This document shows positions 1,492-5,875 of a stretch of 5,907 nucleotides of DNA, piece after piece. Position numbers and translations under genes: made by a program. The DNA comes from a virus (taxonomy: Duplodnaviria; Heunggongvirae; Uroviricota; Caudoviricetes). The first letter of the stretch is position 1. Each line of letters begins with the position of its first letter. The notes beneath the pieces are model-generated. The model was given only the letters and a program-made list of their open reading frames with translations. It searched no databases and was not told the DNA's origin. The stretch spans positions 1 through 5,907 of the IMG/VR virus record IMGVR_UViG_2681813320_000008; one strand, given 5' to 3'.

Positions 1492-1959
1492 ATGAACCGT
1501 GTTCTGTGTGTGGTGATTATTGTCCTGCTGGTAGCCTGTGGTGTGCTTAGTCTGGGGCTGAATCATTACCGCGATAACGCCATCACCTACAAAGCGCAGC
1601 GCGATAAAAAAGTCAGTGAGCTGAAACTGGCGAACGCGACAATTACTGATATGCAGATACGCCAGCGTGATGTCGCTGAACTTGATGCCAGATACTCGAG
1701 GGAATTAGCCGATGCGAGAGCTGAAAATGAAACTCTGCGTGCTGATGTTGCCGCTGGTCGTAAGCGCCTGCGGATCAACGCCACCTGCTCCGGTACCGTG
1801 CGTGAAGCCACCGGCACCTCCGGCGTGGATAATGCAACCGGCCCCCGACTGGCAGACACCGCTGAACGGGATTATTTCATCCTCAGAGAACGGTTGATGA
1901 CAATGCAGAAGCAGCTGGAAGGGGCACAGGACTATATCCGCACTCAGTGCCTGAACTAA
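1492..1959 (+). CDS. Rz: i-spanin (inner-membrane spanin subunit), lambda Rz-like
   Basis: 155-aa product [39 protein letters not shown]... with N-terminal transmembrane domain and coiled-coil periplasmic region; near-colinear with lambda Rz as recalled ([34 protein letters not shown]). Start trimmed from the track's GTG 1408 to ATG 1492 by that alignment. Confidence 0.9.
1712..1897 (+). CDS. Rz1: o-spanin (outer-membrane lipoprotein spanin subunit), lambda Rz1-like, embedded in the +1 frame of Rz
   Basis: 61-aa ORF wholly inside Rz in another frame. Lipoprotein signal with lipobox LVVSAC, proline-rich mature region [32 protein letters not shown] closely matching lambda Rz1 as recalled ([32 protein letters not shown]). 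The start could instead be the internal ATG at 1727. Confidence 0.85.
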
Positions 1960-2256
1960 GTTTTGCTGATGCGCCGTATCGTCGCTGTATTCCCTCATTA
2001 ACAGAGACCGCAGCCCGACAGGGAGACTCCTCTGCGCGAGTGTGCGGGGATAATCAAAAACGATACACACCGGGGTTTACCGCGTTAACGGAGCGCGGCG
2101 TTGTCCCCTCATAGTCGCCAGTCCGGTGCGATGGTGGAAGAAACAGGACGATGTGTTACCTCGCAAGCCCTGTTATGTCATGTGTCTGATTTGTGATTTA
2201 AGTCGGATAATTGTCGTTGCCATTAAGCAGAGGATTGATGACCGACAGGGCGGCAT

Positions 2257-2279
2257 TGTTAGAATAAGACTTATTCTAA
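2257..2279 (+). promoter_or_regulatory. Candidate extended -10 promoter (TGTTAGAAT, 2257-2265) overlapped by a 21-bp perfect palindrome (TTAGAATAAG-A-CTTATTCTAA, 2259-2279), a putative operator for the downstream lipoprotein gene
   Basis: Perfect 10-bp arms with a 1-nt spacer, directly seen; TGnTAGAAT matches the extended -10 consensus TGnTATAAT at 8 of 9 positions; located 19-40 bp upstream of the lipoprotein ATG at 2298, with a possible -35 TTGATG at 2235-2240. Confidence 0.35.
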
Positions 2280-2297
2280 TCTGTGCGGGGAATGAAA

Positions 2298-2624
2298 ATG
2301 AAAAGAAATCTTCCGTTAATTATTTTGTTGTCTTCTCTGGTTATGGGCTGTACGCAACATAAAACAGATATGCCCCGACAGTTGGTTAAGGCATTACCAC
2401 AATATCCGGCCTATGCAGCGGCAAATTATATAAAGGGACGGGTTGATGTGAGGTTTGATATTGGTGCTGATGGTACTGTCACCCGAATTGAGTTTATTCG
2501 TTCAGAGCCGCACCATCTGTTTGATGAGCAGGTTGTAAAGGCGATGGCAAAATGGCGATTTGAGAAGGACAGGCCGTGTAAAGGCGTGAAGAAAACGTTT
2601 ATCTTTAGTCCTTCTGCGCACTGA
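2298..2624 (+). CDS. Lipoprotein with TonB C-terminal-like domain (phage moron candidate)
   Basis: 108-aa product MKRNLPLIILLSSLVMGC... with basic n-region, hydrophobic core and lipobox-like LVMGC. Mature part carries the TonB C-terminal pattern PQYPAYAAANYIKGRVDVRFDIGADGTVTRIEFIRSEPHHLFDEQVVKAMAKWRFEKD...KKTFIF (YP..A...G.V.V.F.I..DG.V......S...LFD..V..A...W.F). It lacks the proline-rich spacer and N-terminal membrane anchor of true TonB. Start chosen at ATG 2298 (GGGG 7 nt upstream) rather than the track's GTG 2283. Confidence 0.75.
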   Translation: MKRNLPLIILLSSLVMGCTQHKTDMPRQLVKALPQYPAYAAANYIKGRVDVRFDIGADGTVTRIEFIRSEPHHLFDEQVVKAMAKWRFEKDRPCKGVKKTFIFSPSAH

Positions 2625-2755
2625 TTATTTCATCAGAAATTAATTATCACTCTGTTGTTATTCTGTACATCCCGGCAGGGTAAGTATTGTTCCGTCGGAT
2701 ATGAAGATGAAATATTGTTGGAGGACAGTGGGTACCTGCTCCTGTAACCGAACGT

Positions 2756-2956
2756 TCATTTCTCGTTATTTGTCATGCTGGCCGGGCGCAGATGCGTTGC
2801 ATCTGTTGCCAGCCTTCTCCTGCAGGCTTCAATAACCCACGCTGAAAAGTTACCGGACCCTTTATGCTCAAGGGCGATGTTGATCTGTTCAATCATGTGA
2901 TTGGGGAAACGGATATTGCGGGTTGTGGTTCTGCGGGTACGGTTTTTCGATGACAT
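2756..2956 (-). CDS. Small ribbon-helix-helix DNA-binding protein, YlcI/YnfO-like (DUF3950 family) as recalled from E. coli cryptic prophages
   Basis: 66-aa product MSSKNRTRRTTTRNIRFPNHMIEQINIALEHKGSGNFSAWVIEACRRRLATDATHLRPASMTNNEK: basic N-terminus, a beta-strand-like NIRFP followed by two helices (an Arc/CopG-like arrangement). Start set at ATG 2956 with a strong RBS (AAGGA, 7-nt spacer) instead of the track's upstream ATG 3016, which would overlap the HNH gene start. Confidence 0.65.
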   Translation of the reverse strand: MSSKNRTRRTTTRNIRFPNHMIEQINIALEHKGSGNFSAWVIEACRRRLATDATHLRPASMTNNEK

Positions 2957-2997
2957 ATTTATTTCCTTTACTGATTGCCATATGACGGGGATTTTAC

Positions 2998-3363
2998 ATG
3001 GCTGAGCTTCGTACACTCCAGAGCAGAATCAAAACACTGAATACCCGACGGGTGAATATTCTGAAGGGTGAACAGCGTCGTGTCAGTGGCAGTGCACGTG
3101 TTTCCCTCAAGCGTCATATCTGGCTCAGGGATGCCGGGCAGTGCTGTCTCTGTGGTCGTGTGGTTGACCTCTGTGACAGTGAACTCGATCACCGAATTGC
3201 ACTTCAGTTCGGTGGTGGTAATGAGGAGACGAATCTCTGGACGCTCTGTACCGAATGCCATCGACAAAAGTCTGCTCGTGAAGCGGCGAGTGATATGCCG
3301 GACCCGACGCTGCCGGAGGTGTCCGGAGGTAGTGGCAGAGAGGACGACATCATCGGACTGTAA
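2998..3363 (+). CDS. HNH endonuclease, phage packaging-associated
   Basis: 121-aa product with two CxxC pairs (CCLCG, CTEC) and the HNH core DHRIALQFGGGNEETNLWTLCTECH; sits immediately upstream of the putative cos region and terminase genes, the arrangement known for HK97-type cos phages (gp74). RBS ACGGGGA 7 nt upstream of the ATG. Confidence 0.85.
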   Translation: MAELRTLQSRIKTLNTRRVNILKGEQRRVSGSARVSLKRHIWLRDAGQCCLCGRVVDLCDSELDHRIALQFGGGNEETNLWTLCTECHRQKSAREAASDMPDPTLPEVSGGSGREDDIIGL

Positions 3364-3653
3364 CCCGACCCCGGGGGGGTATCATCCGGCGTAAAAAACG
3401 ATCGCTTTGGACACCGCGCCCCCTCTCACGCAGAGAAAAAATTCCCGTTTCAGGGCAGTTAACATGTTAACTGGCTGCCCGGGCATTTTTGCGGTTTTTA
3501 TCTTTATTATTCAGTTTGTTGTGCGGAAAAAATGTTAACAGGCTTTTTCAGCAAATGTTAACCAGGCAGCAGTTAACATTTGCGGCATGAGACGCCGGGA
3601 AAAATGGGCTGAACCATACCCGGCTGAGTGCGTTCTGGACCCGGGAGGAGGCT
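3364..3653. other. Putative cos / packaging-initiation region (non-coding, between HNH endonuclease and terminase small subunit)
   Basis: 290-bp non-coding gap in the position where cos lies in HK97-like and lambda-like genomes; contains a CCCCGGGGGGG tract (3369-3379), A/T-tract-rich, probably bent DNA (3485-3530) and clustered GTTAAC-containing repeats. The exact cosN nick sites cannot be assigned from sequence alone. Confidence 0.4.
3456..3581. repeat. Cluster of five GTTAACAT/ATGTTAAC motifs: an 18-bp perfect palindrome (3456-3473), a solitary copy (3532-3539) and an inverted repeat with 10-bp arms and a 9-bp spacer (3553-3581)
   Basis: Directly seen: CAGTTAACATGTTAACTG (3456-3473) is self-complementary; AAATGTTAAC (3553-3562) and GTTAACATTT (3572-3581) are reverse complements; ATGTTAAC also occurs at 3532-3539. 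Five copies of an 8-mer in 126 bp is far above chance. Function (terminase small-subunit sites, or operator for the RHH protein) is inferred. Confidence 0.6.
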
Positions 3654-4217
3654 GTGCTGACAACGCAAAAACGAAAATTTGCGCTGGCGCTCATGTCCGG
3701 GAAAAACAAAACAGCGTCAGCCATTGCCGCCGGTTATTCGGCGAAGACCGCCAGGGTTAAAGGCTCGCAGCTGGCAAAAGATCCTGAGGTGCTTGCGTTT
3801 ATAGCCCGTAAACAATGCGAGACGGTGGAGGTGGATGAGGTTCCTGTTTACCGGCAGAAAAAATCAGAGCAGGAGGATAAACCCCGTCGCCGTGAGGCGG
3901 CTGCAATACCACAGCCGGACGAAAACAATCCGGAGATGCCACCGTCCGCGGTGATGTCTCCTGGTATTGAATATATGGAGGATGGTCTTCCCGATCCGGT
4001 GAAAGCCATGGGGCGGATCCTGGTGGAAAACCTCTGCATTGATCCGAAACTGGCACTGGATGCGGCCTGGCGTCTGGCGCAGTTCACGCACCATAAAAAA
4101 GGGGATACCGGGAAAAAATCGGCAAAAGGTGATGCCGCGAAAAAAGCGGCTAACCGTTTTGCGGTGCCACCGCCCCCCCGACTGGTGGTGAATAACGATA
4201 ATGAGGGCAACGGATGA
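3654..4217 (+). CDS. terS: Terminase small subunit (Terminase_2-like, N-terminal helix-turn-helix)
   Basis: 187-aa product; N-terminal KRKFALALMSGKNKTASAIAAGYSAKTARVKGSQLAKDPEV fits the TerS HTH pattern (AGYS.KTA); charged low-complexity C-terminus; stop overlaps the terminase large subunit start (ATGA at 4214-4217). GTG start at 3654 with GGAGG 5 nt upstream. Confidence 0.8.
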   Translation: MLTTQKRKFALALMSGKNKTASAIAAGYSAKTARVKGSQLAKDPEVLAFIARKQCETVEVDEVPVYRQKKSEQEDKPRRREAAAIPQPDENNPEMPPSAVMSPGIEYMEDGLPDPVKAMGRILVENLCIDPKLALDAAWRLAQFTHHKKGDTGKKSAKGDAAKKAANRFAVPPPPRLVVNNDNEGNG

Positions 4218-5875
4218 TACCTGTATGGAGCACAGCCTGCCCGGACTGGGCAGAGCGCCTGAAAAAGGGGCTGTCGATTATTCCGGATCCGATTTATCCG
4301 GACGAGGCCGCACATGCCCTGGCGATTTTTAAACAACTGCGGATTGTGGATGCACCTGGTAGCCCTACGTTCGGGGAGTCCTGTGCACCGTGGGTGTTTG
4401 ACCTGGTGGCGGCCCTGTTTGGCTCCTACGATGCGCAGACCGGTGTACGCCATATCAAGGAAGTTTTTATCCTTATCCCCAAGAAAAACTCGAAGTCCAC
4501 GCTGGCCGCGGGGATCATGATGACTGCACTGTTACTGAACTGGCGGCAGGCGGCGGGTTACACGATTCTGGCCCCGACTGTGGAGGTGGCGGCCAACGCC
4601 TTCAACCCTGCCCGGGATATGGTACGACGTGACGATGATCTGGATGACCTCTGCCAGGTACAGACCCATATCCGGACCATCACCCACCGAGTGACGGACA
4701 CCACCCTGAAGGTGGTGGCAGCCGATCCGAATACGGTGTCCGGTATCAAGTCCGTGGGTACGCTGATTGATGAGTTGTGGCTGTTTGGCAAGCAGTGCAA
4801 GGCGGAGGACATGTTACGTGAAGCCATAGGCGGCCTTGCCTCCCGCCCGGAAGGGTTTGTGGTGTATACGACCACCCAGTCGAATGAACCGCCCGCCGGG
4901 GTGTTCAGACAGAAACTGCAGTACGCCCGGGATGTGCGCGACGGCAAAATTCATGATCCGCACTTTCTGCCGGTGATATTTGAACACCCTCCTGAAATGG
5001 TGGAAAGCGGGGCTAACCTGCTGATGGAAAACCTCGCCATGGTCAATCCGAATCTCGGCTATTCAGTGGATGAGGCCTTTCTGTACCGGGAGTACCGTAA
5101 AGCCCGGGAAGCCGGTGAAGAGACATTCCGGGGGTTCATGTCAAAACACGCCAATGTGGAAATTGGTCTTGCCCTGCGCTCTGACCGCTGGGCGGGGGCT
5201 GATTTCTGGGAAGAGCAGGGCCGTTGTATCAGCCTGGACGATATCCTGCGTCGTGCTGATGTGGTGACGGTGGGGATTGACGGCGGAGGGCTGGATGATC
5301 TGCTGGGGATGTATGTGACTGGGCGTGACCGGGAGACCCGCGAATGGCTGGGCTGGGGCCATGCCTGGGCGCATGAAACCGCGGTGGTCCGACGGAAGAG
5401 CGAGGCGTCCCGGTTTCAGGATCTTGTTGCCTGTGGAGATATGACCATTGTCCGGCGTGTCGGGGATGACACGGCGGAAGTGGCGGAATATGTGCGTCGC
5501 ATTCATGAGGCTGAGTTACTGGACCATATCGGTATTGACCCGTCAGGGGTGGGGCAGATTCTGGATTCACTGGCGGAAGCCGGGATCCCCGACGGAATTG
5601 TGGTGGGGATAAGCCAGGGCTGGAAACTGGGCGGGGCCATTAAAACCACCGAGCGCAAACTGGCTGAAGGGGTGCTGGTGCATGGTGACCAGCCCCTGAT
5701 GGCCTGGTGTGTCGGCAATGCCCGGGTGGAGCCTAAAGGTAACGCCATTCTTATCACCAAACAGGCCAGTGGACGGGGAAAAATTGACCCGCTGATGGCG
5801 CTGTTCAATGCGGTCTCCCTGATGTCCCTTAACCCGGAACCGAAAAAGAAAGAATATGCGGTTTTTTTCATATAA
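4214..5875 (+). CDS. terL: Terminase large subunit (Terminase_1 / HK97-like ATPase-nuclease)
   Basis: 553-aa product; Walker A-like ILIPKKNSKST; Walker B-like hydrophobic stretch ending LIDE; C-terminal nuclease-domain pattern (VTVGIDGGGLDDL ... KIDPLMALFNAVSLMS) typical of the family; translationally coupled to terS. Confidence 0.92.
   Translation: MIPVWSTACPDWAERLKKGLSIIPDPIYPDEAAHALAIFKQLRIVDAPGSPTFGESCAPWVFDLVAALFGSYDAQTGVRHIKEVFILIPKKNSKSTLAAGIMMTALLLNWRQAAGYTILAPTVEVAANAFNPARDMVRRDDDLDDLCQVQTHIRTITHRVTDTTLKVVAADPNTVSGIKSVGTLIDELWLFGKQCKAEDMLREAIGGLASRPEGFVVYTTTQSNEPPAGVFRQKLQYARDVRDGKIHDPHFLPVIFEHPPEMVESGANLLMENLAMVNPNLGYSVDEAFLYREYRKAREAGEETFRGFMSKHANVEIGLALRSDRWAGADFWEEQGRCISLDDILRRADVVTVGIDGGGLDDLLGMYVTGRDRETREWLGWGHAWAHETAVVRRKSEASRFQDLVACGDMTIVRRVGDDTAEVAEYVRRIHEAELLDHIGIDPSGVGQILDSLAEAGIPDGIVVGISQGWKLGGAIKTTERKLAEGVLVHGDQPLMAWCVGNARVEPKGNAILITKQASGRGKIDPLMALFNAVSLMSLNPEPKKKEYAVFFI

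Follow-up and report, generated by a model that had tools for sequence, protein, structure and literature searches.

A perfect 21-bp inverted repeat lies on a promoter-like sequence in the leader of a small lipoprotein gene, in the late region of a lambdoid, Stx-phage-like prophage of E. coli. The question raised by this locus is whether the repeat is an operator or whether the promoter is what matters and the symmetry is incidental. We have analysed the whole stretch of DNA in which the repeat occurs, 5,907 nucleotides long and referred to here as the window. The reading that we favour, with somewhat better than even confidence, is that of an extended −10 promoter of a moron, symmetric by accident in this strain, which drives the TonB_C gene independently of the late operon.

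Prophage setting and the inserted cassette

The closest complete match to the window is a prophage of E. coli NCCP15648, with 99.9% identity over positions 1900–3050. The window begins with the end of an IS1 element (1–126); IS1A/IS1B ends found on plasmids match positions 1–141 at 97–98% identity, and homology to phages sets in at 127. That these first 126 bases are the scar of a cat cassette was ruled out, the sequence being that of an IS1 end. The element has entered a small ORF of the minus strand, located between ydfR and the lysozyme gene, and the late operon of this prophage is therefore interrupted upstream of its lysis genes. Further along lie the lysozyme gene (316–849), three small hydrophobic (membrane) ORFs (1142–1490) that have no counterparts in some relatives, Rz with Rz1 embedded in it (1492–1959), the TonB_C lipoprotein gene (2298–2624, plus strand), a DUF3950 (YlcI/YnfO) gene on the minus strand (2756–2956), an HNH endonuclease gene (2998–3363) and the genes for the small and large terminase subunits (3654–4217 and 4214–5875).

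Three other features of this region may be recorded. Directly 3′ of the lysozyme gene, at 940–980, there is a GC-rich hairpin, AAAACCCCGTTTGTTG / CAGCAAGCGGGGTTTT, followed by GTTTTTAT, which looks like an intrinsic terminator within the late operon, ahead of the ORFs at 1142–1490. In the intergenic region between the HNH and small terminase genes (3456–3583), (A)ATGTTAAC / GTTAACAT(TT) occurs five times, with copies in either orientation; CAGTTAACATGTTAACTG, a palindrome of 18 bp without mismatch, and the inverted pair GCAAATGTTAAC...GTTAACATTTGC of 12 nt are among them, and the repeats probably serve in terminase or cos recognition. The DUF3950 protein has a sequence, RNIRFPNHMIEQINIALEHKGSGNFSAWVIEACRRRL, that would fit a ribbon-helix-helix DNA-binding fold. 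Its gene has a conserved place shortly before those of the terminase, which hints at a function in packaging or in late regulation.

The lipoprotein gene, together with its leader and a 3′ tail, forms a cassette of 604 bp (2145–2748) that sits at a junction in the phage backbone, between GAAGAAAC and CGAACGTTC, with Rz on one side and the DUF3950, HNH and terminase genes on the other. In the collinear phage vB_EcoS-783R2 (L003) the sequence GGTGGAAGAAACCGAACGTTCATT runs uninterrupted across this junction, the two halves reading GGTGGAAGAAAC-CGAACGTTCATT without a break, and there are 604 bases fewer than in the window. At the same point prophage L002 carries other DNA, unrelated to the cassette and containing a 46-aa ORF. 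The cassette has a GC content of 42.5%, the window as a whole 52.4% and the 190 nt upstream 57.6%. Its one CDS is that of the TonB_C lipoprotein, and it carries no regulator gene. The window-type cassette is found in 414 of 5426 complete E. coli genomes. Two marks of a moron are thus present, insertion between genes that are adjacent in related phages and a deviating base composition. A further one, a factor-independent terminator of its own, is missing: a terminator scan of 1900–3100 found no intrinsic terminator on either strand and, with none after the gene, the cassette is not a textbook promoter–gene–terminator moron.

The backbone point downstream of Rz, GAAGAAAC followed by CG (2142–2148 and 2745–2751), has received at least three different inserts among prophages, namely the window-type TonB cassette, a second, LF82-type TonB cassette (L165) and the unrelated insert of L002, a pattern suggestive of a hot spot at which morons recombine. 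The 190 nt ahead of it (1960–2148) are non-coding, yet conserved in ~1,870 E. coli genomes. A scan of genome contigs with the protein alignment found no relatives, and in the collections covered the TonB_C lipoprotein family appears to occur in E. coli prophages only. Scans of viral and metagenome sequences gave no cassette lineage beyond three: the window type, the LF82 type and a third lineage represented by L164.

The TonB_C lipoprotein gene and the expression of its sister allele

The gene at 2298–2624 encodes 108 amino acids from a start that agrees with the RefSeq annotation, and a Shine–Dalgarno sequence, GGGGA (2287–2291), can be read 6 nt before the ATG; the LF82-type allele has an equivalent AGGA at the same distance. 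The earlier description of the product as a TonB-like lipoprotein is borne out by several comparisons. The protein matches Pfam TonB_C (PF03544) with E = 8.6e-15 and 55.4 bits (cut-off 24.6) and NCBIfam tonB_Cterm TIGR01352 with 55.2 bits (cut-off 27.1), and its match in the PDB is to structures of the E. coli TonB C-terminal domain (1u07 and 2gsk, E ~ 1e-15), spanning the whole domain including the QYP motif. The N-terminal signal peptide, as read from the sequence, ends in a lipobox, LVMGC. Against the NCBIfam equivalog models of full-length TonB it scores 49–74 bits where the cut-offs are 265–448, and only the C-terminal ~80 model positions align. With a lipoprotein signal instead of the TonB membrane anchor, no proline-rich spacer and these sub-cut-off scores, it is not a functional TonB. 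No paper on the function of this protein was found in the literature.

PHROGs places the protein in phrog_1267, labelled “Rz-like spanin” (E = 6e-42), at odds with the Pfam, NCBIfam and PDB matches; the label looks as if it had been carried over from the neighbouring lysis genes. Within the CDS there is an antisense promoter-like site on the minus strand (2425–2452, CTCACA-16-TATAAT, 10/12), and the LF82 allele has a site at the same position (L165, 21422–21449) that is also 10/12 and has a TG. Since the antisense site overlaps the conserved ANYIKG codons, it may be a by-product of coding.

The second cassette type, LF82-type (representative P0008), occupies the same backbone junction and encodes a protein 72% identical to that of the window. 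It is present in 1221 of the 5426 complete genomes, including LF82, UTI89, 536 and ST131 strains, so that the two types together are found in roughly 30% of complete E. coli genomes. One copy has been covered by published RNA-seq. LF82_160 (1194177–1194503), described as a “TonB fragment” of prophage Perceval of E. coli LF82 (PMC9928086), is the gene at 21295–21621 of L165 and the RefSeq TonB family gene, with identical coordinates. In the lysogen its transcript gave 55.7 normalised reads as against 9.9 for Rz, 15.5 for the small and 6.8 for the large terminase subunit (PMC9928086 S1 Table), and gene-level RNA-seq puts it ~4–8-fold above the flanking Rz and terminase genes under five conditions (PMC9928086 Table 1, S1 Table). 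The authors classed it as a moron, 8-fold over the prophage background, and its log2 expression stays at 5.0–6.6 across LB, DMEM and macrophages, while that of the adjoining divergent bor/iss gene, upstream on the opposite strand, swings from 4 to 11 (PMC9928086).

As LF82_160 stands above its neighbours, a promoter must lie between Rz and LF82_160. These data bear on a reading that we consider quite improbable, in which the leader holds neither promoter nor operator. Motif and palindrome would both have arisen by chance in AT-rich DNA of foreign origin, and transcripts of the gene would come solely from late-operon read-through in the lytic cycle. Promoter-like matches are indeed expected by chance, the ancestral form of the palindrome is at chance level (see below) and the cassette is not delimited by a terminator. 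The sister gene, however, is ~4–8-fold above the late genes on either side of it in uninduced lysogens, the opposite-strand iss/bor gene upstream is regulated differently from it, and the two leaders have diverged except for one conserved word, the −10 block. A literature search on the protein accessions, on TonB-like prophage lipoproteins and on maps of transcription starts yielded the LF82 expression table and no start-site dataset for either allele. By analogy, the window-type allele would be expected to behave as the LF82-type allele does. The earlier suggestion that the moron is transcribed independently in the lysogen therefore stands as far as the absence of the cassette from collinear prophages, its low GC content, the conserved −10 and the expression of the LF82-type sister can carry it, the expression data being those of the sister allele.

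Candidate promoter and palindrome in the leader

The extended −10, TGTTAGAAT, lies at 2257–2265 on the plus strand, with TG at 2257–2258 (−15/−14) and the hexamer TAGAAT at 2260–2265 (−12 to −7). TAGAAT matches TATAAT at five of six positions, among them the A of position 2 and the T of position 6. In keeping with the extended −10 class, TG stands one base ahead of a hexamer near TATAAT, and the element has the same position upstream of the orthologous genes. The left arm of the palindrome had been said to hold TAGAAT preceded by TG, and a promoter scan agrees, reporting TGnTAGAAT with its TG as the sole plus-strand promoter-like site in 1900–3100, in a setting where chance alone would give 1.9 consensus matches per 1.2 kb on both strands. 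The usual distance of 6–9 nt after a sigma-70 −10 hexamer would place the start of transcription at 2271–2274.

The −35 region is poor. TTGATG (2235–2240) can be read from the sequence as a 4/6 match, 19 bp from the −10 and thus above the optimum spacing, whereas the scan pairs the −10 with ATGACC (2238–2243) at 16 bp. TTGATG is kept at equal distance in L163 (87% protein identity) and in L164, and is absent from the LF82-type allele. In L163 the spacer between −35 and −10 has 7 substitutions, more variation than any other part of the leader, with TTGATGA and CATTGTTAGAAT untouched. Activation of the MerR type, suggested by the 19-bp spacer, was rejected, since this spacer contains no dyad and varies more than the rest of the leader. 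A divergent promoter on the minus strand, where TAGAAT can also be read, was likewise discarded; it has no TG, no −35 and nothing upstream to transcribe, and the majority allele changes its hexamer to AAGAAT.

The conservation of the −10 itself can be followed through progressively more distant alleles. The extended −10 is unchanged in 81 close copies (near-identical sequences from IMG/VR, and NCCP15648), in L163 and in EPEC E2348/69 (94.5% DNA identity). The LF82-type leader is nearly unalignable with that of the window except for two islands. The first, AGTCRGATAAT, falls inside 2189–2212 of the window; the second, ATTGTYAGAATAAGAC, consists of TG, the −10 hexamer and five more bases and matches at 15 of 16 positions. 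The sole word of 7 nt or longer common to the window-type and LF82-type leaders, AGAATAAGAC, is at the −10. The LF82-type element reads TGTCAGAAT or TGTTAGAAT. Among the observations that count against the main reading are these: the −35 is poor and missing from the LF82 type, most LF82-type copies have C, not T, at −12, and L164 has TAAAAT in place of TAGAAT and has lost the TG.

The other island, TTTGTGATTTAAGTCGGATAATTG (2189–2212, plus strand, 24 nt), is kept in all three cassette lineages and its flanks are not; a 12-mer within it is common to the window and L164 (1/1000 shuffles). It could be a pair of CRP-like half-sites or an alternative −10, GATAAT (2206–2211), judging by its letters. 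The CRP-like core TGTGA-N6-TCGGA scores 8/10, a value reached by 35 of 500 shuffles, and its centre is ~72 nt upstream of the predicted start. GATAAT has no usable −35 and no TG, as read from the sequence, and is not among the hits of the promoter scan. It could nevertheless be the real promoter or an additional one.

The palindrome, TTAGAATAAG-A-CTTATTCTAA, spans 2259–2279, with arms at 2259–2268 and 2270–2279 that are 100% complementary about a 1-nt centre; a repeat search recovered the perfect 21-bp inverted repeat that the earlier note had reported. Its left arm is made up of the −10 and a purine-rich discriminator, and its pyrimidine-rich right arm covers the predicted positions −2 to +8. 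A perfect palindrome of 10 + 10 with a spacer of 0–3 nt was obtained in 22 of 1000 dinucleotide-preserving shuffles of the window, so that the perfect form is unusual. The improbability of the perfect form, and a partial dyad in the same columns of L164, speak against a purely incidental palindrome. TGNTANAAT occurs twice in the window compared with 0.64 expected.

The population sample of 81 near-identical copies shows what this perfection consists of. Position 2278 is T in 78 of the 81, which leaves nine of ten pairs, and the palindrome is perfect in the remaining three. Other variants of the right arm are found at 2276 (five copies) and 2271 (one copy); all three variable palindrome sites are thus in the right arm, the left arm and TG being invariant. 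T is also present at 2278 in L163 and EPEC E2348/69, and in the column aligned to 2278 in L164. With T in the majority and in all diverged relatives, the ancestral base is T, and the symmetry became perfect through one recent substitution of A for T. The 2278T form can readily arise by chance in a sequence as long as the window: of 1000 shuffles, 447 contain an arm of 10 nt with a single mismatch and 287 a perfect 8 + 8 core.

These results bear on the proposed operator. According to this proposal a dimeric repressor of the host or phage would cover −13 to +8 and occlude RNA polymerase, making expression of the moron conditional. The operators of LexA, Fur and TrpR are repression sites that overlap the −10 or start, and the 10-1-10 dyad, perfect and unusual in shuffles as it is, overlaps the −10 and predicted start in this classic position; L164 keeps six of ten symmetric positions about the same centre. 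Dyad symmetry is present, perfect in the window and 9/10 in 78 of 81 relatives, but in the more prevalent LF82-type allele ~14 nt are missing directly after ATTGTYAGAATAAGAC, the whole right arm included, and the sequence runs straight into the Shine–Dalgarno. That allele is still steadily expressed in five conditions: its promoter can do without the right arm, and no strong regulation is seen under any of them. In L164 the right arm is identical to that of the window at five of ten positions. The two half-sites are therefore not both conserved, and variation within the palindrome is confined to the right arm.

Nor was a regulon or a cognate protein found. A search of 972 kb of DNA from related prophages, with all 50 kb of Perceval included, gave no further site with up to five mismatches, and there is no extra half-site with up to two mismatches elsewhere in the window. 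The 17-nt core, AGAATAAGNCTTATTCT, has at least 120 matches in 185,579 species genomes, close to the ~140 roughly estimated for chance, and the taxa among the matches listed are unrelated and mostly AT-rich. A comparison with known regulators was run with seven consensus sequences (Fur, CRP, ArgR, LexA, Zur, FNR and Lrp) and shuffle controls; none gave a match to the palindrome that was both significant and in register. Fur, for example, matched at 12/19, as did 123 of 500 shuffles. A Zur-like match of 15/23 (17 of 500 shuffles) was set aside, as it is centred on 2264 where the dyad is centred on 2269 and fails correction for multiple testing. The cassette brings no regulator gene, and the neighbouring DUF3950 gene was rejected as a candidate, being a backbone gene present in phages without the cassette, with no related repeat nearby. 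Since the perfect symmetry is a private SNP, no independent support is left for the operator, and the earlier note's claim of a dimeric-protein operator under a host or phage repressor finds no support in these comparisons. The operator reading is unsupported, nothing found argues for repressor control, and we regard it as improbable.

A more elaborate version combines the dyad with the function of the protein. As the lipoprotein spans the whole TonB C-terminal domain including QYP, it could, from its sequence, compete with host TonB for TonB boxes; periplasmic C-terminal fragments of TonB reportedly inhibit TonB-dependent transport, as described by Howard et al. in 2001. The lipoprotein would then be a periplasmic decoy against host TonB at the TonB boxes of transporters, with its expression gated by a host regulator at the dyad. 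If so, the decoy would protect the lysogen against TonB-dependent phages and colicins, and a regulator bound from −13 to +8 would confine the cost to iron and B12 uptake to certain conditions in the window-type lineage. Taken jointly, these two propositions are very improbable.

The arms may alternatively act in the RNA, which we consider unlikely though slightly less so than the operator. Transcripts from upstream, starting at the GATAAT at ~2206–2211 or reading through from the late promoter, would form a hairpin in the 5′-UTR ~19 nt before the start codon and so modulate the stability or translation of the mRNA. For 2250–2300 the computed folding energy is −13.1 kcal/mol (z = −2.9), and 3 of 200 shuffles do as well. 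The majority allele has an additional outer stem, GGCA/TGCC, and reaches −11.5 kcal/mol (z = −2.4). The same columns of L164 can still pair over 7 bp as a hairpin, in which two base pairs are changed on both sides (G-C to A-U and A-U to G-C) and two others are U-G wobbles. In the C2276T variant a G-U pair results, and the upstream island is conserved in all three lineages. However, the covariation comes from one lineage and is reached by 42 of 500 shuffles, and a purine-rich left arm will often pair with a pyrimidine-rich right arm by composition alone. Being A/U-rich, the stem has little stability (−4.6 kcal/mol for the 21-mer), and the hairpin leaves the Shine–Dalgarno uncovered. The LF82-type leader, which lacks the right arm, has no significant fold (z = +0.2) and is expressed all the same. 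The hairpin also needs an upstream start, for which the sole candidate is the GATAAT island with neither a usable −35 nor a TG. Rfam gave no match to an RNA family in the region. An intrinsic terminator or attenuator was rejected, as the palindrome has no U-tract, a 1-nt loop in the DNA and a weak stem.

We return to the extended −10 promoter with an incidental palindrome. On this reading TGTTAGAAT would be the extended −10 of a weak, essentially constitutive sigma-70 promoter belonging to the 604-bp cassette. Transcription of the TonB_C lipoprotein gene would start at ~2272, apart from the phage late operon, and the gene would for that reason be expressed in lysogens. That TAGAAT is the hexamer actually used is what we infer from the sequence. 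The two arms, one the −10 and discriminator and the other the pyrimidine-rich start of the transcript, would be partly complementary by composition, and the recent T-to-A change at 2278 would have made the complementarity perfect in this sublineage, with the palindrome as a by-product.

Comparison with known systems

The LexA and Fur boxes and the TrpR operator share with the palindrome a dyad of ~20 bp centred just downstream of the −10. The palindrome differs from them in that its half-sites are not both conserved and in having no regulon, no cognate regulator and no in-register consensus. It makes a cautionary case, in which a striking, perfect palindrome proves, from population and sister-allele data, to be a one-SNP accident on a −10.

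The promoter is closer to its model. The extended −10 (TGn) class of E. coli sigma-70 promoters, reportedly described by Mitchell et al. in 2003 and exemplified by galP1, has the TG, a hexamer matching at 5/6 with A(−11) and T(−7), and a weak or absent −35, all of which are seen here. The departures from the class are the loss of TG in L164 and the C at −12 in most LF82-type copies, and the promoter of the window is a predicted one. This pins down where the start site should be sought for a gene carried by ~30% of sequenced E. coli.

For the protein, the nearest parallels are Llp of T5 and Cor of phi80 and N15, phage lipoproteins that block TonB-dependent receptors in superinfection exclusion. 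Like these, the TonB_C protein is a prophage-encoded lipoprotein with predicted export to the periplasmic side; unlike them it would have its blocking role by inference only, and there is no sequence relation. The cargo gene, for a widespread TonB C-terminal domain with predicted export, holds more interest than the promoter before it.

The whole cassette is best compared with the lambdoid morons, those of HK97 and HK022 having reportedly been defined by Juhala et al. in 2000. Lambda bor and lom and the morons of HK97/HK022 (review PMC3594210) have promoters of their own and are expressed from the prophage. Like them, the cassette is a small element of deviating composition between conserved late genes, near the Rz/bor position, absent from collinear relatives and encoding a single envelope protein, which, as in Bor, is a lipoprotein; transcription in the lysogen apart from the late operon is shown for its LF82 sister allele. 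It is unlike them in having no detected intrinsic terminator, a promoter that is predicted, and a TonB C-terminal domain as cargo rather than Bor/Iss or Lom/Ail. The feature is ordinary for lambdoid prophages: it adds one more moron expressed by a prophage in lysogeny and leaves the concepts unchanged.
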